From an uncultured Candidatus Saccharibacteria bacterium (GTDB taxonomy: Bacteria; Patescibacteriota; Saccharimonadia; Saccharimonadales; JAGQNJ01): a stretch of 64,000 nt of DNA. The translations under genes and the position numbers were made by a program. The stretch is from positions 67,643-131,642 of the forward strand of contig CAZPVO010000003.1 of assembly GCA_964590205.1 (NCBI GenBank), in the 5' to 3' direction. This document shows positions 31,553 to 43,372 of the stretch, one piece after another; within the stretch, counting starts at the first letter, position 1; each line of letters begins with the position of its first letter. A model generated the notes under the pieces. The model was not told where the DNA came from. It did not search any database and saw only the letters and a list, made by a program, of their open reading frames with translations.

Positions 31553-34500
31553 CTATTGTTGAACTTGGTAGTTCATGATCACATCTGTTGAGGCTGGTGT
31601 TTCAAAGTAGATCGTGAAGTCTTTATCAGTGCTATCGACACGGTAGCGAGGCGCAAACGTATCCTTAGGCGTTAGTATGACAACTGGTTCACTACCCAGG
31701 TCGTATGGTTTCACGAAGGTAAACTTGAGCTGCGTCTGACCAGCTGGGATTGTCAGCGTTCCCCTAGTATCGGTATTGCCAAGCAAATGTCCCTGGATGG
31801 TAATGTTGCCGGCGAAGGTGGCGTTACCAGTAACTGTTAGTTGAGCTATTGTGGCCGCTCCAGTCACAGTCAGGTTGTGTACTGTCGCAGTACCTGAGAC
31901 ATTAAGGCTCGCGAAGTTGGTGTTGCCTTGGTTATTCTCAAGCGCACTCACACGTTGGCTCAAATCACTTATCTGTCCAGTAAGGTTACTAACACTGTTA
32001 TTTGAAGTTGTTTGCCCCTGCTGTAAGCCAGTTATTTGCAGGTCTTGCGTCTGAGCGGCACCAACCAGATAAGGGATGATTGCCTGGTAGTTGGCGACAT
32101 AGTAGCCGTTACTGTCTTGGGAAACAGCTTGAGGGAGTATTTGCATAAGCTCTTGGGCGATGAAGCCTTCTTGGTTCTTCTGTGTTGGATCATCATTCCA
32201 GGTAAAGTTCACACCTCGAAGCTGCTTAATAACATCGAGGCCATTGGCGATAGTTACTACATTACCCTTGAGCCGAGCGTCAGATGAACAGGCGAACTGA
32301 GTACCGGCGCCTGGGCTAATAGTACAAGTCTCGGCACCGGCGTTATTAAATTGCGCTACAGCACTACCACTGGTAGCTGCATTGGTAAAGGCAAAGACAT
32401 TTGAAGCATTAACACCCAAGGTAACATTGCCGTTATTAGCAGCATTTCGCCAGGCGATGTTGTTATTATTTTGAAGTCGCACTGCGCCTGCATCAGCACG
32501 ACTACTCCCTACCCCTAAGTATACCCCTGCGACCCACGCCCCGCCAGTTGAGGAAATGCCGCTAGCATTTGTCGTAATATTTCCGGCACTACTGATAGAA
32601 AAGTCAGTACCGACCGCAAAGGCATCATCGGTTTTAAGAGTATCAGCTGCACTGCGATATAGGTTGGTATCTCGTGATGAACCAAATGCCAGACCAGCAG
32701 CGGCACTTGTATTATCTGCGTCACTACCAACCCAAAGAGTTTGAGTCCGAGCCGTGCCAATTGCAATACCATAGTTTGTTCCGCTACCACTGTTAGACGC
32801 TCCAACCTTTATTCCATAATTAGTCGCGCCTGAGGTTAGGCCATCAATGTTAATGCCGTAGTTGTTGGTAACCACGGGTGCGCCATCAATAGTAGGGGCG
32901 TCGAGCTGAATACCATATATGTTAGACACTGTCAGACCCGAGCATAAGCCACTACATCCACCACTACCGCTGAGAGAAACTGTATTATGGAAGCCATACA
33001 TATTGGTTGTGGTGCTACCACTTATACCGAGGTTAGATACATTATTGCTAAATCCTGTATATGAAGCCATCGTGCCACTGCCCCCAATACTGCCTCCGAC
33101 ACCATAGCCATAGGCGTTGTCGGCAGTGGTAAGTGACATTGCAGCATAATAATTATAAGCGTTGCTTGTGCCCGCACCAGCATTGTCAGCTGAAACGTTC
33201 GAATAGACACCATACGTATTTGCGGTGCCACCAGTAGCACCTGTACGCGTAACATTTATCACTTGACCAAACGTTGTATCTGTACCGCTTGTCGTTACAC
33301 CAGTATTGTTTACAGTAGTCACTTGTCCTTGCAGCGATCCGGCAGTAGCACTTGCACTACTCTGAGTCACGTTCAACGGTGCTAAGCCAGACTTATTACC
33401 ATCACCTCCAAAAGATGAACTACCTTGCGCTGATAGACCTTGTCCAAACGATGCAGCACCCTGCACACTCAGATCACCGGCATCAGTAATGGTACCTTCG
33501 GTATAAAGTTGAGAGGCAGCAATACCACCGGCCGATAGCTGTTGGATATATGCTCCCCCCATATCGTAGATGCGCAAGTTACCATTTGCGTTCATATACG
33601 CATAGCGTCCAGCAACTTGTATGGTCTGAATAGCATTGCCGACGTTTGCGTTTGAAAGCACCGAAAAGGCATTGCTCGGTACGGTAACATCATAAACCGA
33701 GAAGCTTGTAGCAGCCGTGTTGCCGCCAAGATAGGCATAGTTACCTTGGACCCATATGGCCTGGTTTGTTGCACTACCGGTTGTGACGCTCTTAGTTAAG
33801 GTTGGCGCTGTCGGGTCACTAACATTTATAATTTCGAATTTACCACTGCTCTCACCAAGGTACGCATAGCTTCCTTTTACGAATATTGCATTCACGGCTG
33901 CGCCGATACCAGTGCCGGTTGTGCCATTGGTACCTGAAGAATTGATGAACCCGGTCGTAGTAACAGAGTAAGGATTAGAGATATCTGCGATGTATAGGTT
34001 AGTAGTTGTAGAGGTGTAATATATATATTTACCTTGGCCAAATATTTCACCATTACCGGATGCTACAGGTGTCCAGGTGCTCGTAACAGATGGAGATATT
34101 GGATTCGAAACATCCATTATTCTTACAACGCCACTACCCGTACTTATATAGGCATAGTGCCCTTGAACCCATATGCCGTTTGATGTTGCACCCCCATGAG
34201 CCGTTGTCGATACAATACTTGGCGACTTCGGATTACTAATATCAATGATCTGTAGGCTTGTAGAGGTGGCTACATAGGCATACTTACCTACCACTTGAAT
34301 CGATGTGGCAGTCCCAGTTAGCGCAGTAGAACCCAAATTAACCGGATTAGCTGGGTCAGAAATATCTTGTGGGACCAAAAAGGCACTCGTTATCGAATAG
34401 GCATAATTACCTTGAACCCATGTATCAATAGTACTCGCGAATGCAACCGAACCAATTTGCTGCGGGGCTGCCGCAAAGCTATTCTTAAATGTTGCGCCAG

Positions 34501-37500
34501 TACTGACATGCAGATCACCATCAATATTCACATTTCTATCGAAGTTTGCGCTACCTTGCACATCAAGTGACCCAACAATATGCGTGTTGCCGGCGGTAAG
34601 ACTGCCTCCAATACTGCCGGAAGGATCAGAACCCGAAGCATCCGACAAAGCTTGATTGCTCAGGCCAACCAGATCAAGCGAACCACCAACCAGTACACGG
34701 GCTGTGCTCGCGTAATAAATATTACTATATACAGTGCCCGATGATGCGTTAGCAGACGCACCGCCAAGACTATAGATATAGCCGTTGTCGGCTACACTTG
34801 CCTGACCAAGCAATGACTGAGGTAATGTATAGCTGGACGTCTGGAAAGTTCCCAGGGTTCCATCACCGTTAAGTTTGGCGTAGTAGATAGTGTTATTTGT
34901 GTTAGTTGAACCAGTGGTACTACCGCCAATAACATATACATACCCATTAACAAAGGCGCCCGAATGGTACTGACGGTTAGCAGGAAGTGTTGGTGTGCTT
35001 AGGGTTTGGACGTTACTGTTAGCACCAGTTAATGGATCAAGTGTCGTAGTAATAATGGTATTGTTTGCCCCACCACCAATAATGTAGGCCGTGTTATTGG
35101 CTACAACTACTGTGGCATTAGCGCGTCCGCCAACTGTCGTACCAGTATTCCACGCCGTAGCACTTGAACCATTGCCACCAAGACTACCGTCAGAGTTAAC
35201 CTTTGCGTAAAATAGGGCACCGGCACCTCCCGATGCAGAATAAATATAGCCATTAGCCGTAAAGACAACATGGCCAGACTTGGCAGTCAAACCACTAGTG
35301 TTGCCGCTTTGCCAGGCACCTGTCGAACCATCAGAGTTAATTTTTGCATAATAAACAGTCGTTTGGTTCGATCCGTTATTTGCAGCATGACCACTGACGA
35401 CATACATAAAACCGTTAACCACAACTGGATTGCCGAACTCTCCTCGCGCTGCTGGCAGTGACTGGGAAGCAGTTGTCCATGAGCCAGTTGAGCCATCAGC
35501 ATTAATTTTTGCATAGTACACAGCGGTTGTTGCGGCTGAGCCATTAGCAGTTGCAGTGAATCCGCCTACTGAATAGACATAGCCATTGTAGACAACTGAG
35601 CCATTACCATAAACGCTGGCTGGCAAGCTGTTGTTGTTCTTTTCCCATGGGCCAGTTTCACCGGTATTCTGGTTATTGAGTGTAATATGGTTCTGGAAAG
35701 CACCTACTTGTAGGTTTTGAGCGGGAGCTGTGTACGTAAGCCCTGTCGCTCCTGAGACAATCGTTACCCCATCAACAAAAATGTTTCGAGCAGTAGCGTC
35801 GCTTTGCTTAATATATGCACCTGCTACCGTCGTACCATTAGCGCCAGCAACAAGAGTAGAACATGTGAACAGCGTCCAGGTTGTGTTAAGGGTTTGGCCG
35901 GTAAGACAGTTAATGTCAGATCCATTGCTAGTGAGGCCTATCTGTGCCGTTGTCATGCTGCCGCTGTCGACACGAGCATAGAAGCTTACGCTGTAGGTGC
36001 CACCGGCTGGAAAGGCCAGGTTAAAGGTGGCTCCATCGTTGGCTGCTGCGGTGGTGGCAATCTTAAGAGATCGACTCCCGAAGTTGGATAAGCTGTCGTC
36101 ATCGGTAATGGTAGCGCTACCCTTGGCGGTAACAAGTGAAGTATTTTGTTCAAAGTTCGGGTTTCCAAACAGGTTCAGGCCACTCGTCAGCGTATTTATC
36201 TTCAAGATGTCTGCTCCAGAAGCATTATCTACCCTGAAAGCTGAAGTTGAATTTGCAGCGTTTTGGAACAAGGCCGAACCGTTATTGCCGCTGATGGTCA
36301 CTACCGTACTCTGGGCGTTCTGCGTACTACCAGTAGAGCCAGCCGCTGCAATCTTAATATTCACATCGCCACCATTACCGGTACCCGTGCCAACCCCGCC
36401 ATTTAGATTCAGTGCACCGCCAGTTGTATTAGAAAGACCACTGGCTGCATTGCCTCCTTGTACGCTAAGCGCTGCAGCTGTAACGCCTGCACTCGAACTG
36501 CCAGTTGCATTTAGCGTAAAGGCAGCTGGTGTTGCTGATGTAACACCGTTACCAAAGTAACCCGATGTTGCAGTACTGGAAGCAGCTTGTCCTAGCTGGA
36601 CAACTAACTGGTTAGCAGCTGTCGAGGCTGCTGATGCACCGAGTACTACGGTGTCGCTAAAGGCAGACGAAGCACTACCCCCCAAAATAACGTTTCTATT
36701 TACCGTACCACTGGCTGCCGCACTGGACCCGAGGATGACGCAGGTTGCACAGTTGCCACCACTAGCACTTGTGCCAATAATGACGTTACCCGCCGAAGAA
36801 CTGCCGGTTGCGCTAGTACCAATTACGACTGCGTTGCCACTTGGTGAAGTGGCACTATTTCCAATTACTACAGTGTTGTTACCGGCTGCTGTGGCGCCTG
36901 AACCAAAGCGTTCACTGCTACTACCTGCACCAGGACAGCTTAGGCTTCCATTAGTTCCACTAATCGTACAAGCTGTTGCCAAACTGTTTACCGAGGTGCC
37001 TGATGTACCTGCCGCAGAGTATTGAAAGATAATGTTACCACCCGCAACATTACCTGTACTCTGGCCACCGGCCAATATTAAGTCACCTCCTGCTGTGTTG
37101 CTTGTACCAGTTGTTGAGCTACCGGCTTGCAACTGAATAGCAGTACCTGCTCTACCGGCAGTGTTACTACCTTCGCCTGTAAGCGTAAACGAAGATGGAT
37201 TAAGTGCACCAGCTGTTGCCAGACCAAAGTACGCAGTATTACTGGTATCAAAAACCAGCCGGGTTATATTATTTGTTTTAATTGCCAGCGTATTGTTATC
37301 GAGCGTACCGAGTACTCCCGGCGTACTTGCCCCAAGCGTATTGCCACCTTGCGCCCAGTAAGTACCACTTGCCTGGTAGCCTGAGCAGACCGAACCAGTC
37401 GTACAAATTGTGCCGCTTTCATCTGGTAGCGTAAATGTTCTGCTTGCCGTAAAAGTATTGGCACCGAGTATCGATCCAATAAAGCCATTGCCAGCTGTAC

Positions 37501-40500
37501 TATCGTGAAAAGCCAAAATCCCTTTAATTGGTGTCGTATCGTTGCCAAGTGCTACACCAGGTACTATCCCGCTCGTAACAATAGTGAGAAGAGAAGCTCC
37601 ATCAGACCGTTTAACAGCAAACGCTGAAGCAGAGTCGACACTGTTTTGGAAAGTGGTCGCACCGCCAACTGCAATGGTTGCTTGGGTTACATTGTTAGTT
37701 TCAAACTTGAAGTTGTTGCTGTCGTTAGTACCAAGAATTACATCTGAACCGAAGCTATTACCGTTATTAAGAATGTCGCCTGTCCCACCAATTCCGGCAC
37801 AGTTACCACTGGTCAAACAAACCGTACCCGAAGCATTTGGCAAAGAAATAGCATACGTGCTTGAGCCTGGGTTAGATGCCGATAGACTAATCGAACCTGA
37901 GCCGCCTGAGTTATAGAATGTTAAGCTGCCGGTTGCACCTGAGGCTCGTCCAAAATAGAAGTTTCCACTTGCCGTAACACCAGAGACTGCATTGCCGCTA
38001 CTGTCTTGGAATTGCAACAAATCAGCCGTCTGGCTTGATTTAGCTTTTATAAGACCAGTGATGCTGCCAGTGGCAGAGCTTTGAACTGCAAAGTTTGCAT
38101 TGCTCTGAACAGTTGTCGAGTTATTAATGTAATTACCAGAGCCGCTCGACGATGCAAAACCACAATTGGTTGAGTTTTGTATACAAATTGTGCCGCTTTC
38201 GTCAGGCAGATTAATTGTTCGTGCACCGGTTGCAGCTACCACGCTTAGCGTTGTCGTATTAGAGTTTGAGCTATTATTGAAAACAAGCGTACCAGAGCTA
38301 GAAGATGCTTGGCCAAGTAAAACTGAGCCATTAGAGGTATTGGCAGTCAGAATGTTATCACCGAGCGACGTGAGGATCCTGAAGCCGGCCGATGAGTTAG
38401 TGCTATTCTGGAAGGTTGTAGCTCCCCCATTTGCGATGGTGACTTGTGTATTATTCCCTGTAATAAATTGTAGACTGTTTGCATCTGTTGTTCCGAGCTT
38501 GGCAGTTGCACTAAACGCATTTCCATTTTGAGTAAAGTAATTGCCGCTTGCTTGGTAGCCACTACAAACTGAACCAGTTGTACAAACAGTTCCATTTTCG
38601 GCAGGTAGTGTAATCGTATATGCAGTCGGCCCTGGATTTGCAGCATTGAGGGTTATTGAGCCAGCACCCGCGGCATTGTATAACAACAAACTACCCGATG
38701 TAGAACTTGCAGTACCTAATACTGCAGTGCCCGTTGGCACTGTCAACGTACTACCAACTATAAAGTTGCCATCTGTTTTTAGCGTGGCTGCTGCTGAACG
38801 ATATAAGTTTGTATCACGAGAAAGTCCGAATCCTATGCCAGCCGCAGCCGTCGTATTATCAGCATCACTCGAGAGCCAAAGGGTCTGAGTATCAGCAGTA
38901 CCGACTGCTATACCGTAGTCGACCGTTCCAGCCGTTTGCGGCTGTACATTAATACCAAAGTTAGTGCCAATGGTGCCGCCGCCACTATTAACTGCAGATA
39001 ATACGAGTTGACCAGCGGCATTGGTGATCGTACCTGATGAGGTATTACTAACAAGTGTGCCAAGACCTATTGCGCTTGTTACAGTACCACTAGCATTGTT
39101 ATCACTCAGAGCAAGCATTCCAAATTCAGAAGTAACAGAGCCAGCGCCGTTATTTCTTGCCCAACCTGACGTACCAATAACTGTACTGACCGCCCCCGTC
39201 GTGCTCACATTAGTTGTTCCAGCAGTTGAGGTATATACCCCTGAGTAGTTGATTCCTGATCCGGTCAAACCTAAACTACCATCCAAAGCTGTCGAAAAAA
39301 CCGTCGAATCAGAAGGAGGGCTTAGCGTAATCCAATCTTGGATACCTGTTACCGCACCACTAGTATTTGAATAGCTTTCCTTGGTTTGCACCAACACATT
39401 AGGACTAATAGAGGCATTGCCACCGACTGCAAGCTGACTGCCAACCGTAAGGTCATTATTAACATTTACATCACCCGATGAAGTCACAGTCAGTCTTGTG
39501 ATGTTATGAGTCTCGAAATTTAAATCATAGTTATCGTTTGTACCGATAGTAATAGCTGAGCCAAAAGCGTTACCACCATTGTTGATGTCACCGCTACCGC
39601 CACTACCATTACAGTTATTGGCGGTTGTGCAAATATCATACGTACCAGAACCTGCTGCCGTCGCAAATTTGTATGTTGTTGTTCCACCTGCCCCATCAGC
39701 TAACTTAAAGTAAATGTTTCCGTCTGTTCCAGTGAGACCACCTATTCCACTGCCCGCCGTACCAGCCTGGAACGTAATATTGCCCCCAGCACCATTGGTT
39801 GAGCCATTTGGTGCGTCACCGCCATTCCCGGCCTGCAAGCTGATAGACGAACCCGCACCACCGATTTGCCCGGTTCCTCCAACTGTATTGCCACCTTTAG
39901 CCCCCAGTACATTAAGAACTGGATCGGCATCTGTCCCGTCAGATCCCGAGTCATTTGGTGATGAACTATTAACTGTAAGCGTTGCTGAAGGAGTCCCCGC
40001 ACCAATAATTACCCTTTTATCAGTTGTATCGACAGTCAGAACATTAGACCCAGCAGTATTTTTAACCTGAAAGGCTGTACTACTATTGGTTGTTGGCGCC
40101 AATGTGAAGCGGTCAGTTATGATATCTCGAACATACTCGGTGCCGTAATAGGCTGTTGGCGAACCGATATTAGAACCAGTTACGGTGTCAGAAGCCGAAC
40201 CAAGGTTAGCAAAGCGTAGTCTTTGGTTGGATGCATCGTAGTAAGCCAACTGGGCGTAACCATCAGGGCCTATTGCAGCAGAAACATACTGACCAACATT
40301 CGCCGAACTGTCGACTGTTGAAATAGTTGGGTTGGCACAGGTTTTGTCATCACAAGAAGCAAATTTTAGAGTGTTAGGAGTAGTATCATAATATGCGATT
40401 TGTGGCACACCTTTGGCATTCAGCACAATACTTGTGGCTTGAGCATCGGAAGTGTTATCAACCGTTTGGGTCGTCTTGGATGAGCAAGCCGCATTAAGAC

Positions 40501-42430
40501 AGTTAATGTAGGTTAGGCGGCCTACGCCAGAACTCTGATAAGCAATGTGTGCCAAGTTGGCGTTATCAAGAACAATTGTGTTCCAGTCGCCAGACCCGCT
40601 CGCCGCATCAACCGTAGTTGTATTGCTTGTGGTACAGTTAGCATTCGTACATTGTACATACTGAAGCCCTCCTGGTTGCAAATGATAGGTTAGTCTTGCT
40701 GTATTATCAGAAGCTAAAGCTATCCCTGGTGCACCTGTATTATTACCACCGCTATTATTAATAACGGTAGAAACCGACGTGGAACAATCAGTTGCTGTAC
40801 ATCGAACAAACGTAAATGAAGTGTTTGCGCCGTTAAATAGAAACATCCGTGCCATTCCATCCGTGCCAACGGCAATTCTTGCCGAACGTTGAGTTAGATT
40901 ATTTGCCCCGCTCATAACTACTACTGGTGTAGTAGTAGTGCTACAGTCGGAATTACAACGTAAAAACTTAAACTGATCATTCAGCGAATCGTAGTAAACA
41001 ATGTGGATGTTATTGCTACTATCAAGTGCTGCTGAGGCATGCGAACCAATACTGCCTGTCGATTGAAGTGTCCGTTGTGTAATACTTGAACAAAGTGTGT
41101 CGTTACACTTGGTAAAGCCAAGATCTGCCGCTGTCGGTTTGAAGCTTATAATCCTGGCCAAGCCACTACTGTCAAGCAATATTGTGTCGTGCTGACCGTC
41201 ACGAACTGCAGATAGCGTAGTATTGTAAAAAGTGGTGGTAAGGTTCCCTGCTGTCAGAGGCACTAGCGAAGCTGTATTAACCGTACCCGTAGTTGTATTT
41301 ACGGTTAGTAAATTTACTCCTGCTGCATTTTGAACAGCAAATGCCTGGTTTGAGTTGGCTGCATTCTTAAAAGTTACTGCGCCACCAACTGCAAAAGTAG
41401 CCGCTGTTTGTCCATTGGTTCGAATCTGCAACGGATTACTGTCATTTGTTCCTAGAACTGCCGTTGCACCGTATTTGTTACCGCCTTGTAGAAAAGCCGT
41501 TGTCGAAATTTGAATGTTGACAGTATTACCACTTTGATTGGTGGTAAGAGTAATACCTGTTCCTTGTAGCAATTTAATAACTTGGGAGTTATCACCTGTA
41601 CCAAATGTCAGAGATACATCGCCTACTTGGCCGTTAATAGAACTAACGCTATCTTCTTGTGTTGTACTTGTAGCAACTTGGCTTTGGATCGGTACTGAGT
41701 TGCTTGATGCACAATTGTCTGAACTTAAACATATTTCGCCCGAGCTATTTGGCAAAGTATAGACTTGATCAGATGTTAACGCACTGGCGTCAAACTGTCC
41801 AAATACGGTGCCATTGGCTGTACCAATAAACAGCGAGCCCCGTGCAACAACGTCACCATTCACAATTAATTTATTTTTGCCGCCTTTAGACTGTAGAACT
41901 GATAAAACGTTCCCTGTATCTTCACCTAGAGTCAAACTTTGTTCATTCACCGAGCTAGATGGTGATTTAAGCTGACCGATGTTGCGGCGCGATATAAACC
42001 CTGTGACACCGACTAACGCAATTACAATCAGCATCGCCACACCGGTTATGATGTAAACAGCTTTATTGCGGCCAAGTCTTCGTGGGAATAACGGTGTTTT
42101 GGGTTCTGCAGCTGGAGTCTGAGCCGGCTGCGTAGCAGTAGATGCTCCCGAATTAGGGTCACCTAACGGAGGTGATGCTACCGGGTTGGATGTGACAACA
42201 GATTCACTTGGGGCTGATTCTAAAGAGTTAGCATCCGGAACAATTGGCGGTTCATAGCTGTTTGTTGCTGTTTGAGATGGAGGTGGTGTTACTGGTTGAG
42301 AAACTGATTGTGTACTAACGGATGCAGCAGCAGTTGGAGTTGAGGCACCTTGATACGAGGCCCCTTCCCCCTGCTGGGTAGGAGTAAAAACTGTGTTCGC
42401 AACTGGGGTATTTTTATCTTCGTTTTGCAT
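31553..42430 (-). CDS. giant (3625 aa) N-terminally membrane-anchored surface fibre/adhesin with Kelch and LVIVD propellers, a CBM4_9-like domain, tail-fibre-like repeats and a C-terminal Peptidase_S74 intramolecular chaperone domain
   Basis: Single uninterrupted ORF. aa 1-123 are S/T/P/A-rich, aa 124-146 form a TM helix, and the rest is G/S/T/N/A-rich with multiple internal repeat families (domain map in findings). All plus-strand ORFs inside are antisense artefacts. Confidence 0.9.
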   Translation of the reverse strand: MQNEDKNTPVANTVFTPTQQGEGASYQGASTPTAAASVSTQSVSQPVTPPPSQTATNSYEPPIVPDANSLESAPSESVVTSNPVASPPLGDPNSGASTATQPAQTPAAEPKTPLFPRRLGRNKAVYIITGVAMLIVIALVGVTGFISRRNIGQLKSPSSSVNEQSLTLGEDTGNVLSVLQSKGGKNKLIVNGDVVARGSLFIGTANGTVFGQFDASALTSDQVYTLPNSSGEICLSSDNCASSNSVPIQSQVATSTTQEDSVSSINGQVGDVSLTFGTGDNSQVIKLLQGTGITLTTNQSGNTVNIQISTTAFLQGGNKYGATAVLGTNDSNPLQIRTNGQTAATFAVGGAVTFKNAANSNQAFAVQNAAGVNLLTVNTTTGTVNTASLVPLTAGNLTTTFYNTTLSAVRDGQHDTILLDSSGLARIISFKPTAADLGFTKCNDTLCSSITQRTLQSTGSIGSHASAALDSSNNIHIVYYDSLNDQFKFLRCNSDCSTTTTPVVVMSGANNLTQRSARIAVGTDGMARMFLFNGANTSFTFVRCTATDCSTSVSTVINNSGGNNTGAPGIALASDNTARLTYHLQPGGLQYVQCTNANCTTSNTTTVDAASGSGDWNTIVLDNANLAHIAYQSSGVGRLTYINCLNAACSSKTTQTVDNTSDAQATSIVLNAKGVPQIAYYDTTPNTLKFASCDDKTCANPTISTVDSSANVGQYVSAAIGPDGYAQLAYYDASNQRLRFANLGSASDTVTGSNIGSPTAYYGTEYVRDIITDRFTLAPTTNSSTAFQVKNTAGSNVLTVDTTDKRVIIGAGTPSATLTVNSSSPNDSGSDGTDADPVLNVLGAKGGNTVGGTGQIGGAGSSISLQAGNGGDAPNGSTNGAGGNITFQAGTAGSGIGGLTGTDGNIYFKLADGAGGTTTYKFATAAGSGTYDICTTANNCNGSGGSGDINNGGNAFGSAITIGTNDNYDLNFETHNITRLTVTSSGDVNVNNDLTVGSQLAVGGNASISPNVLVQTKESYSNTSGAVTGIQDWITLSPPSDSTVFSTALDGSLGLTGSGINYSGVYTSTAGTTNVSTTGAVSTVIGTSGWARNNGAGSVTSEFGMLALSDNNASGTVTSAIGLGTLVSNTSSGTITNAAGQLVLSAVNSGGGTIGTNFGINVQPQTAGTVDYGIAVGTADTQTLWLSSDADNTTAAAGIGFGLSRDTNLYRSAAATLKTDGNFIVGSTLTVPTGTAVLGTASSTSGSLLLYNAAGAGSITLNAANPGPTAYTITLPAENGTVCTTGSVCSGYQASGNYFTQNGNAFSATAKLGTTDANSLQFITGNNTQVTIANGGATTFQNSTNSSAGFRILTSLGDNILTANTSNGSVLLGQASSSSGTLVFNNSSNSNTTTLSVVAATGARTINLPDESGTICIQNSTNCGFASSSGSGNYINNSTTVQSNANFAVQSSATGSITGLIKAKSSQTADLLQFQDSSGNAVSGVTASGNFYFGRASGATGSLTFYNSGGSGSISLSASNPGSSTYAISLPNASGTVCLTSGNCAGIGGTGDILNNGNSFGSDVILGTNDSNNFKFETNNVTQATIAVGGATTFQNSVDSASAFAVKRSDGASLLTIVTSGIVPGVALGNDTTPIKGILAFHDSTAGNGFIGSILGANTFTASRTFTLPDESGTICTTGSVCSGYQASGTYWAQGGNTLGASTPGVLGTLDNNTLAIKTNNITRLVFDTSNTAYFGLATAGALNPSSFTLTGEGSNTAGRAGTAIQLQAGSSTTGTSNTAGGDLILAGGQSTGNVAGGNIIFQYSAAGTSGTSVNSLATACTISGTNGSLSCPGAGSSSERFGSGATAAGNNTVVIGNSATSPSGNAVVIGTSATGSSSAGNVIIGTSASGGNCATCVILGSSAAASGTVNRNVILGGSASSAFSDTVVLGASAASTAANQLVVQLGQAASSTATSGYFGNGVTSATPAAFTLNATGSSSAGVTAAALSVQGGNAASGLSNTTGGALNLNGGVGTGTGNGGDVNIKIAAAGSTGSTQNAQSTVVTISGNNGSALFQNAANSTSAFRVDNASGADILKINTLTSGLNLFGNPNFEQNTSLVTAKGSATITDDDSLSNFGSRSLKIATTAAANDGATFNLAFPAGGTYSVSFYARVDSGSMTTAQIGLTSNGSDINCLTGQTLNTTWTLFTCSTLVAGANGTTVAGAYIKQSDATARNIFVDGVTIVSGATGLTYTAPAQNLQVGAFQNHITLNNQNTGETGPWEKNNNSLPASVYGNGSVVYNGYVYSVGGFTATANGSAATTAVYYAKINADGSTGSWTTASQSLPAARGEFGNPVVVNGFMYVVSGHAANNGSNQTTVYYAKINSDGSTGAWQSGNTSGLTAKSGHVVFTANGYIYSASGGAGALFYAKVNSDGSLGGNGSSATAWNTGTTVGGRANATVVVANNTAYIIGGGANNTIITTTLDPLTGANSNVQTLSTPTLPANRQYHSGAFVNGYVYVIGGSTTGSTNTNNTIYYAKLNGDGTLGTFQTSSYTLPQSLLGQASVADNGYIYSLGGASANASSGTVYSNIYYASTARVLVGGSLDLVGLSNQALSDASGSDPSGSIGGSLTAGNTHIVGSLDVQGSANFDRNVNIDGDLHVSTGATFKNSFAAAPQQIGSVAFASTIDTWVQGNYAYSITSAFLVPQDISDPANPVNLGSTALTGTATSIQVVGKYAYVATSTSLQIIDISNPKSPSIVSTTAHGGATSNGIWVQGHYAYISTGSGVVRIMDVSNPISPSVTSTWTPVASGNGEIFGQGKYIYYTSTTTNLYIADISNPYSVTTTGFINSSGTNGTTGTGIGAAVNAIFVKGSYAYLGESSGKFEIINVSDPTAPTLTKSVTTGSATNQAIWVQGNYAYLGGNTAATSFSVYDVTVPSNAFSVLSNANVGNAIQTIQVAGRYAYMNANGNLRIYDMGGAYIQQLSAGGIAASQLYTEGTITDAGDLSVQGAASFGQGLSAQGSSSFGGDGNKSGLAPLNVTQSSASATAGSLQGQVTTVNNTGVTTSGTDTTFGQVINVTRTGATGGTANTYGVYSNVSADNAGAGTSNAYNYYAAMSLTTADNAYGYGVGGSIGGSGTMASYTGFSNNVSNLGISGSTTTNMYGFHNTVSLSGSGGCSGLCSGLTVSNIYGIQLDAPTIDGAPVVTNNYGINIDGLTSGATNYGIKVGASNSGSGTNYGIAIGTARTQTLWVGSDADNTSAAAGLAFGSSRDTNLYRSAADTLKTDDAFAVGTDFSISSAGNITTNASGISSTGGAWVAGVYLGVGSSRADAGAVRLQNNNNIAWRNAANNGNVTLGVNASNVFAFTNAATSGSAVAQFNNAGAETCTISPGAGTQFACSSDARLKGNVVTIANGLDVIKQLRGVNFTWNDDPTQKNQEGFIAQELMQILPQAVSQDSNGYYVANYQAIIPYLVGAAQTQDLQITGLQQGQTTSNNSVSNLTGQISDLSQRVSALENNQGNTNFASLNVSGTATVHNLTVTGAATIAQLTVTGNATFAGNITIQGHLLGNTDTRGTLTIPAGQTQLKFTFVKPYDLGSEPVVILTPKDTFAPRYRVDSTDKDFTIYFETPASTDVIMNYQVQQ

Positions 42431-42535: not shown

Positions 42536-43372
42536 CTAAATCCACAAAATGATATAAATCGAACCTAGCCCAAAGAGTAAAACAATAAACGCCAGCCACG
42601 ATACTTGAAACAACTGCTTGAACAATGCTGTTCGAGCCAATGGATTACGTCCAACAGAGATAATCGAGCTATGAATAGCTCCATAAATAATCGATCCTTC
42701 CACAATAAGCAGCAAGAAAAAGATCACTAAAGCTACGATTACTTGAGCTTGGGTAACGGTTTTTCCGGTTATGGACTGCCCGAAAAGTACCAAATAAGGT
42801 TTTTGCTCGGCAGCGTCAAGACTTCGGTCGTGCGGATCGACATTGATCTTAACTTTGTTGATTAGAACTGTTCGTTCACTACCTTCTTTTGTGCTGACCT
42901 TCTGCGTAATCGCTTTATCTTTGTTAAAATCTTCTAATGCTGCCCCTACTACTTGGGTATCACTGTCAGCTGCCTTCATGCCTATTCCAGTCAGGGGTGA
43001 AACCACAATATAGTCACCCTGTTTGATGTCGCCATTCAGATCTGATACATACACGTCAGCATCACCCGAGGTCGTAACGTAAACTTGAGCATTAGAATTA
43101 CTCAAAGTTATCAAACTGGAATCAATCGTTGTGACAATTCCAACAACTTTACCCTTGTTACCATTGTTTGCTCGCTCAACAAGTTCGTTGCCATCTGAAC
43201 TATTTTTTGTTTGTGAAGCAATCATATTTATCTTCAGACTCGTATCTGTAGTGCTGTAGCCTTTTGAAATGCTAACAGCGAGCGCAGATGCAGCCGGTAG
43301 TAAAACCAATAAGCAAGCTACGGCTGCAGACAGTCGTAGATACCATTTAACAGATGACAAATTCTTGGCCAT
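42536..43372 (-). CDS. hypothetical secreted/membrane protein (signal peptide, beta-rich ectodomain, 2 C-terminal TM helices)
   Basis: 278 aa. N-terminal signal-like LRLSAAVACLLVLLPAASALA, and C-terminal VIVALVIFFLLLIVEGSIIYGAI / WLAFIVLLFGLGSIYIILWI. Lies directly upstream of the giant gene, co-directional. Confidence 0.5.
   Translation of the reverse strand: MAKNLSSVKWYLRLSAAVACLLVLLPAASALAVSISKGYSTTDTSLKINMIASQTKNSSDGNELVERANNGNKGKVVGIVTTIDSSLITLSNSNAQVYVTTSGDADVYVSDLNGDIKQGDYIVVSPLTGIGMKAADSDTQVVGAALEDFNKDKAITQKVSTKEGSERTVLINKVKINVDPHDRSLDAAEQKPYLVLFGQSITGKTVTQAQVIVALVIFFLLLIVEGSIIYGAIHSSIISVGRNPLARTALFKQLFQVSWLAFIVLLFGLGSIYIILWI

Follow-up and report, generated by a model that had tools for sequence, protein, structure and literature searches.

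A stretch of 64,000 nucleotides (nt) from an uncultured Candidatus Saccharibacteria bacterium (contig CAZPVO010000003.1 of the GenBank assembly GCA_964590205.1; hereafter the window) encodes a giant protein of 3625 amino acids (aa), in which six pairs of closely spaced cysteines recur at regular intervals. Which fold do these repeats build, and what would such a domain do on a membrane-anchored protein of this size? Structure prediction with AlphaFold2 indicates that aa 399–745 is a seven-bladed beta-propeller with four strands per blade. Its sequence relatives and structural neighbors were examined, and we consider it reasonably likely that the propeller serves as a ligand-binding module. Coordinates of the features are summarized in Table 1.

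The Cys-pair repeats and their predicted fold

The first-pass annotation of the window had placed six tandem repeats in aa 405–745, each carrying a CxxxC pair, with a period of 52–57 aa. This segment corresponds exactly to nt 40196–41218. All six pairs were found at their assigned places, namely CNDTLC (442/447), CNSDC (492/496), CTATDC (544/549), CTNANC (594/599), CLNAAC (644/649), and CDDKTC (693/698), and both context strings quoted with them are present. The period is shorter than was proposed, with distances of 50, 52, 50, 50, and 49 aa from one first Cys to the next (49–52 aa overall). The spacing within the pairs is C-x4-C in five of the six, and the proposed C-x3-C occurs once. In addition, a Cys-less seventh repeat (aa 714–759, YAQLAYYDASNQRLRFANLG), which includes GYAQLAYYDASNQRLRFANLG, aligns in register with the Cys-anchored repeats, raising the count from six to seven.

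The periodicity itself is statistically supported. When hidden Markov models (HMMs) were built with one repeat left out, the omitted repeat scored 21.4–46.1 bits, whereas shuffled sequences (500 each) averaged close to 0 bits, with none above 11.6 bits. An HMM trained on the repeat family described below gave exactly seven matches in the six-frame translation of the 64-kb window, all of them in the propeller (independent E-values of 4e-19 to 3e-8). The seven window repeats scored 29–64 bits each against this model, and repeat 6 is the nearest to the family consensus (63.8 bits). The mean amino-acid identity among the seven repeats is 23% and no tandem repeat was found at the DNA level in the propeller region, which together mark the array as old and diverged. 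A recent duplication of the repeats at the DNA level was ruled out by the same lack of a tandem DNA repeat.

The region had also been described as the only Cys-rich part of a nearly Cys-free ectodomain. It does have the highest density, with 12 Cys in the 361 aa of the propeller (aa 399–759), but the other 3264 aa of the giant protein contain a further 22. Each of the 34 Cys of the protein has a nearby partner, which gives 17 local pairs (spacing of 3–15 aa) separated from their neighbors by 44 aa or more. When the Cys were placed at random 20,000 times, local pairing never reached 17 of 17, the maximum being 8 of 17. This pattern in the sequence suggests that every Cys of the giant protein sits in a short-range disulfide, and the complete local pairing fits an oxidizing extracytoplasmic location. 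A regular-expression search of the window for thioredoxin- or DsbA-like CxxC motifs gave no such candidate; its three CxxC matches were all unrelated.

The structure was predicted with AlphaFold2 from aa 395–775 aligned with 46 homologues (a 47-sequence alignment). The mean predicted local distance difference test (pLDDT) score was 88.8 and the predicted template modeling score was 0.88, and the five models all had pLDDT values of 84.9–88.8. The model is free of helices and has 28 strands, and order is lost only past about aa 750. The region is thereby predicted to be ordered, and not an unstructured stretch. The 28 strands are spread over the seven repeats, and this distribution gives seven four-stranded blades. 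In a Foldseek search of the PDB with the model, the best 22 matches were all seven-bladed propellers. The first-pass annotation had suggested either a six-bladed propeller with a disulfide clip in each blade or a stacked beta-sandwich. The propeller with local Cys clips agrees with the AlphaFold2 model and the Foldseek matches. The number of six blades, however, is ruled out by the 28 strands, the seven repeats, and the seven-bladed top matches, and the seventh blade is unclipped. The beta-sandwich is ruled out by the propeller model.

The order of the strands in the model is D'-(A-B-C-D)x6-(A-B-C), as read from the DSSP string (1 + 7x3 + 6 = 28). The first strand (aa 399–405) matches the register of the D strands, and the model has no D strand after repeat 7. 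Because of this order, with one extra strand at the start and none past repeat 7, the N-terminal strand probably completes blade 7 as its outer strand D in a velcro closure. With blade 7 closed in this manner, the fiber would enter and leave the propeller at one point, where the other blades bear a clip.

The Cys pairs bracket the turn of the outer hairpin in blades 1–6. Specifically, strand C ends with the first Cys in five blades (model residues 48, 98, 150, 200, and 250), while the first Cys of the sixth pair (model residue 299) lies one residue beyond its strand. The second Cys of each pair is located in the C–D loop, 4–5 residues later (model residues 53, 102, 155, 205, 255, and 304). The lack of a pair in blade 7 is probably explained by the velcro closure: with the chain entering and leaving at this blade, it would have no C–D outer hairpin to staple. 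From their strict co-occurrence, their placement at the end of strand C and in the C–D loop, and the extracytoplasmic location, the paired Cys most likely form local disulfides that staple the outer hairpins of blades 1–6. Six such disulfides would contribute to stability outside the cell.

The YYD...LKYA repeat family and its two staples

The first-pass annotation could not assign the repeats to a named family, and this holds for the window copy itself. A Pfam search of aa 381–820 at E ≤ 10 gave nothing meaningful, with one match at chance level (CMV_UL148C, E 0.33, 11.9 bits against a 27-bit cutoff), and Pfam and NCBIfam searches of the whole giant protein at E ≤ 1 gave no match in the propeller region. 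None of the Kelch, LVIVD, WD40, NHL, YVTN, SBBP, and PQQ repeat models matched aa 381–820; Kelch and LVIVD matches were found elsewhere in the protein. BNR_4 (PF15892; gathering score of 27.3 bits) matched neither the window protein nor the domain, even at E ≤ 10. The relatives of the domain do reach named families. Among the 47 aligned sequences, BNR_4 was matched by 12 at E ≤ 0.01 (best E 4e-16, 58.4 bits), DUF7253 by eight, and DUF1936 by seven, and five of 17 Cys-type relatives matched BNR_4 at E ≤ 0.001.

A word-seeded search with the propeller gave 74 homologues (E 6e-56 to 3e-4), typically with 24–33% identity over ~88% of the domain. Against members of the repeat family, the domain as a whole scored E 6e-56 to 1e-20. 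In a HMMER scan of 1.84 billion cluster representatives (clusters at 50% identity) with the alignment, 44,483 representatives were matched at E ≤ 1e-3 and 17,086 at E ≤ 1e-30. Judged by these profile matches, the window domain belongs, as a new and divergent member, to a very large, unnamed, and widespread prokaryotic repeat family of surface proteins. It is an outlier in the family, with no more than 33% identity to any full-length match and 43% over one half-length fragment. The members are found in large secreted or surface proteins, many of the matched proteins hold at least two propellers in chains of 700 to more than 7000 aa, and seven repeats are present in most members. Big, PKD, fn3, SLH, CWB2, sortase, collagen, and type IX secretion system (T9SS)-sorting domains, which are company typical of surface proteins, are carried by the relatives.

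The consensus of the family repeat is TSLALD..G.P.ISYYD..N..LKyA, followed by a hairpin staple and TVD..G.VG. The staple of the C–D hairpin occurs in two versions at the same hairpin: a Cys pair (C-x3-5-C), as in the family consensus ending in.naaC...t.tTVDs.GdVG, or a shorter W-x-G-x-x-W motif. Among 325 family repeats sampled, 146 had both Cys, only four had a single one, and about 100 were of the Trp type. The two types are almost never mixed within one protein. The Cys columns are invariant, or conserved to at least 90%, across 17 Cys-type double propellers, and the hairpin Trp (the second Trp of W-x-G-x-x-W) is invariant across 22 Trp-type proteins. Six of the seven window repeats have the Cys-type staple. 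A last repeat without the Cys pair, as in the window copy, was also observed in seven Cys-type relatives, while all seven repeats are paired in at least eight others. The two Cys are thus the most conserved residues of the subfamily, act as a unit, and are replaced only by a hairpin-packing device. These properties support, short of proof, a structural disulfide, and they serve as the best substitute at hand for the comparison of orthologues that the first-pass annotation had proposed.

The choice of staple may track the type of cell envelope or the redox chemistry outside the cytoplasm. The named Cys-type members are from Acidimicrobiia, Anaerolineales, and the Saccharibacterium of the window, and the named Trp-type members are from Elusimicrobia or carry T9SS-sorting domains; this trend of staple with taxon comprises about six named proteins and is anecdotal. 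The Pfam company of the 17 Cys-type proteins was searched for envelope markers, and only PKD, DUF11, Beta_helix, and LamG were found, which is uninformative.

Function of the propeller

In the Foldseek search of the PDB, the seven-bladed Photorhabdus lectins PLL, PLL2–5, and PHL ranked first (E 2e-14 to 6e-12, template modeling (TM) scores of 0.66–0.79, 11–13% identity). They were followed by the GH145 protein BT3686, 4irt, the PL42 protein FoRham1, and the lectin CV39L (E 3e-10 to 3e-8), and then by six-bladed sialidases. The PLL/PHL lectins (5c9l, 5mxe, 6rfz, 6t96, and 8q83) resemble the window domain in their W-motif propeller fold, with seven four-stranded antiparallel blades made of near-equivalent repeats of ~50 aa. 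They have up to seven sugar sites between the blades, in which Trp residues stack on the sugar (CH–pi), and their Cys make inter-subunit bridges (PMC6943638). The Cys of the window domain, in contrast, are predicted to form intra-blade clips. The sugar-stacking Trp residues are absent from it, with a single Trp in aa 399–759, which places the domain outside the PLL/PHL family. Moreover, the lectins are small soluble proteins, whereas the window domain is a module of a membrane-anchored giant protein, and they were not retrieved by the propeller profile (E ≤ 1) or the repeat profile (E ≤ 10).

BNR_4 is the only named family reached by sequence, through the profile and the relatives. Its seven-bladed rhamnosidase-lyase structures (BT3686, 5mul; FoRham1, 7esn; and 4irt), to which the PL24/PL25 ulvan lyases are structurally similar, were matched by Foldseek with E 3e-10 to 2e-8. 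Enzymes of the PL42/GH145 type, with seven blades and an SxDxGxTW motif, make up the family (PMC8377490). Compared with them, the blades of the window domain are far more repeat-like, and its 47-sequence alignment shows no invariant or nearly invariant polar, blade-specific column as a candidate for the catalytic residues (an Arg neutralizer and a His base/acid, or His48 of GH145). The alignments give no sign of a Cys clip in each blade of the BNR_4 enzymes. A search of the PDB with the propeller profile gave GH145-type chains (4irt, 5muk, 5mum, and 5mvh) at E about 1e-3. Profile matches to designed four-fold TIM barrels (sTIM11 and others, E 3e-6 to 8e-4) were rejected as an artefact of repeat periodicity, because the AlphaFold2 model is all-beta and free of helices; this artefact calls for caution in profile searches with repeat proteins in general.

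The six-bladed sialidases (BNR/Asp-box) share with the window domain the propeller fold class and are extracellular and carbohydrate-active (Foldseek E about 5e-8, TM scores of 0.48–0.55). They differ in having six blades instead of seven and in the Asp-box, and no sequence match to them was found. A regular-expression search for the Asp-box SxDxGxTW gave none in the domain or in the whole giant protein. Finally, a tip-domain cluster overlapping BNR_4, with 37,575 MGnify hits, was reported in predicted fibrillar adhesins, and an adhesion function was suggested for it (Monzon and Bateman, 2022; PMC9210967). The YYD...LKYA family is possibly the fibrillar-adhesin tip domain designated as “cluster 16” in that study.

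From the model and these analogies, we favor, with moderate confidence, a disulfide-stapled seven-bladed propeller that binds ligands on a giant surface protein, as a lectin-like or adhesion module. Its binding would be non-catalytic and possibly multivalent. The binding function is suggested by the fold neighbors, the equivalence of the blades, and the domain company of the relatives. In the 47-sequence alignment, the near-invariant columns are the structural L and Y of the repeat, and no invariant blade-specific polar residue was found. Binding is preferred over catalysis because the blades are near-equivalent, no blade-specific polar residue is conserved among the 47 homologues, and the lectins fit better. 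The domain is located ~250 aa past a single predicted transmembrane (TM) helix, on a surface protein with a C-terminus resembling that of a tail fiber.

Several observations weigh against this assignment. Enzymes (GH145/PL42 and BNR_4) are the closest families to which sequence comparison extends, and no structure of the YYD...LKYA family is detectable in the PDB by sequence, the single-repeat profile giving nothing at E < 0.4. To our knowledge, no ligand is known for any member of the family. The polar consensus is degenerate in the window copy, in which YYD is kept in three of seven blades and the YYD, K, and VD positions are eroded; if the polar residues of the consensus form binding sites, most of these have been lost here. 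No orthologue of the window propeller was found: the scan of genome contigs was empty, and neither the metagenome contigs nor the 80 syntenic loci described below gave one. In addition, the propeller is near the membrane anchor and not at the distal tip, a position that suits a wall-embedded role better than an adhesin head.

The last point leads to a different role, which we regard as doubtful but deserving of attention: a structural or self-anchoring node in or just above the organism's own wall or surface layer, which would bind this layer or mediate fiber oligomerization while the Kelch and LVIVD propellers recognize the target. The latter two propellers lie distally, and the chain is predicted to enter and exit the domain at the same point, as would be expected for a node in a fiber. 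The degeneracy of the polar consensus in four of the seven blades points in the same direction. In the relatives, however, anchoring is left to separate SLH, CWB2, sortase, or T9SS domains, and the propeller belongs to the part that does not anchor. The module is also absent from the syntenic giant proteins of 80 Saccharibacteria, although conservation there would be expected of a core architectural element.

It is unlikely that the propeller is an enzyme of the BNR_4, PL42/GH145, PL25, or sialidase type that cuts envelope glycans of the host or of the cell itself. The reach of the profile to GH145-type chains and the BNR_4 matches of the relatives described above are in line with an enzyme, as is the position of BT3686, FoRham1, and the sialidases directly behind the lectins in the Foldseek ranking (E 3e-10 to 1e-7). 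Nevertheless, the window copy has neither a BNR_4 match nor the Asp-box. Equivalent repeats devoid of a conserved blade-specific polar residue are unlike an active site built from non-equivalent blades, and the Foldseek TM scores are 0.60–0.68 for the enzymes against 0.70–0.79 for the lectins. A role of the Cys pairs in metal binding or redox activity, instead of as structural disulfides, is very improbable: the C-x3/4-C spacing does occur in metal-binding motifs too, and Ogr_Delta and PyrI_C matches, probably driven by the Cys pairs, were found in relatives (in whole-protein scoring, and maybe in one protein), but there would be only two ligands per site, the pairs are ~50 aa apart on separate blade hairpins, the domain is extracytoplasmic, and Trp/Gly/Trp replaces the Cys pair in thousands of relatives, a substitution that points to packing or stapling.

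The giant protein, its locus, and its relatives in Saccharibacteria

The ligand-binding propeller that we favor is one module of a long and composite protein. From the N-terminus, the giant protein consists of a low-complexity segment, one hydrophobic helix, fiber-like modules, the Cys-pair propeller, and more fiber modules, and its distal part consists of a Kelch propeller, an LVIVD propeller, and a C-terminal Peptidase_S74 intramolecular-chaperone domain. It contains three unrelated propellers (Cys-pair, Kelch, and LVIVD) within a single chain. PHROGs matched it solely in the C-terminal S74 region (aa 3376–3469; phrog_33119, “long tail fiber protein distal subunit”). The protein may assemble like a trimeric phage tail fiber, its N-terminal membrane anchor notwithstanding. 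When the propeller model was compared with viral models in BFVD, the best Foldseek matches were uncharacterized phage proteins, including Gp424, Gp425, and Gp427 of Bacillus phage G, and a few proteins annotated as tail fiber or tail spike appeared lower in the list.

A second Cys-pair context is present in the fiber region. It has the form TLPxxSGT[IV]C-x5-C and is followed by a module of ~130 aa with the motif AFxVxNxxGxxxLTVxT. Copies of the latter motif lie on either side of the propeller, at about aa 360–385 and aa 783–808.

Table 1 Features of the window and of related loci. Positions are in nt of the window unless a locus is named.
Feature	Position	Strand	Basis or remark
Giant open reading frame (ORF), 3625 aa	31553..42430	(-)	Contains the propeller; ORF call and translation
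Seven-bladed beta-propeller domain (predicted), aa 399–745	40196..41236	(-)	AlphaFold2, all 28 strands; Foldseek PDB matches
N-terminal strand TTFYNTT, aa 399–405	41216..41236	(-)	First DSSP strand, in register with D strands
Repeat 1, aa 413–462	41045..41194	(-)	C442/C447, nt 41090–41107
Repeat 2, aa 464–510	40901..41041	(-)	C492/C496, nt 40943–40957
Repeat 3, aa 517–563	40742..40882	(-)	C544/C549, nt 40784–40801
Repeat 4, aa 570–614	40589..40723	(-)	C594/C599, nt 40634–40651
Repeat 5, aa 616–662	40445..40585	(-)	C644/C649, nt 40484–40501
Repeat 6, aa 664–713	40292..40441	(-)	C693/C698, nt 40337–40354
Repeat 7, aa 714–759	40154..40291	(-)	No Cys pair; strands A–C finish the propeller at aa 745
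Predicted membrane anchor, aa 124–146 (AVYIITGVAMLIVIALVGVTGFI)	41993..42061	(-)	Read from translation; preceded by basic RRLGRNK
Two further propellers	about 33401–35146	(-)	Kelch aa 2429–2572; LVIVD repeats about aa 2670–3010
Peptidase_S74 domain, aa 3383–3436	32123–32284	(-)	E 5e-14
TLPxxSGT[IV]C-x5-C copies, aa 234, 934, 1283	approx. 41711–41731, 39611–39631, 38564–38584	(-)	
TLPxxSGT[IV]C-x5-C copies, aa 1416, 1538, 1676	approx. 38162–38185, 37799–37819, 37385–37405	(-)	
Syntenic large genes (examples)	L018 15246–22514; L045 17749–21249; L012 15315–16403		Among loci L005–L084, downstream of ileS

The neighbors of the giant gene are housekeeping genes (parA, parB, ileS, a class II ribonucleotide reductase gene, ftsZ, ftsA, and rplU), together with a LytR-family gene. 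An ORF of 278 aa (nt 42536–43372, minus strand) lies between rplU and the giant gene and also adjoins the giant gene on two Logan contigs; it had no Pfam match at E ≤ 1e-3. The same locus was found on the Logan contig SRR9179560_668614, where a 3625-aa gene is called and all 3298 comparable aa match; being identical over this length, the copy is uninformative on conservation. An exact look-up of the giant protein sequence returned no record.

The 80 related loci used for comparison are those of species representatives whose isoleucyl-tRNA synthetase (IleRS) is 65–73% identical to that of the window. Almost all of them are labeled Candidatus Saccharibacteria or Saccharimonadales, which identifies the source organism of the window as a Saccharibacterium (TM7). 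In the 10 kb downstream of ileS in these loci, no homologue of the propeller was detected (tblastn, E ≤ 1e-5). About 15 of the 80 syntenic loci encode large proteins that have only some modules in common with the giant protein (LVIVD region, fiber modules, TM-proximal segment), and none of them has the Cys-clip propeller. This distribution indicates that the giant surface protein is modular, hypervariable, and module-shuffled. The propeller therefore appears to be a lineage-specific cassette. A scan of metagenome contigs with the propeller gave one relative, with 24% identity.

Saccharibacteria spend their lives attached to other bacteria, and for host recognition the foremost candidates are their giant surface proteins, which change rapidly. 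A broader proposal, which we put forward as speculative and rather unlikely to hold in full, is that the YYD...LKYA propeller represents a major, as yet unnamed class of lectin or adhesion domain on prokaryotic surfaces, with two interchangeable staples, used here as a lineage-specific host-recognition cassette in a hypervariable fiber. For experiments, the fold and the family assignment show which piece to express for binding tests, under oxidizing conditions. They also expose a very large family of surface domains with almost no annotation, no solved structure, and no dedicated Pfam model, and the dichotomy of Cys and Trp staples is a natural experiment in beta-hairpin stapling, in which a disulfide is set against Trp packing. 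The result is a useful annotation that neither overturns current understanding nor introduces a new kind of system, and it would not surprise a specialist. Three findings deserve to be retained: the existence of two alternative staples, how large the unannotated family is, and the occurrence of the propeller, like a cassette, in one lineage of Saccharibacteria.

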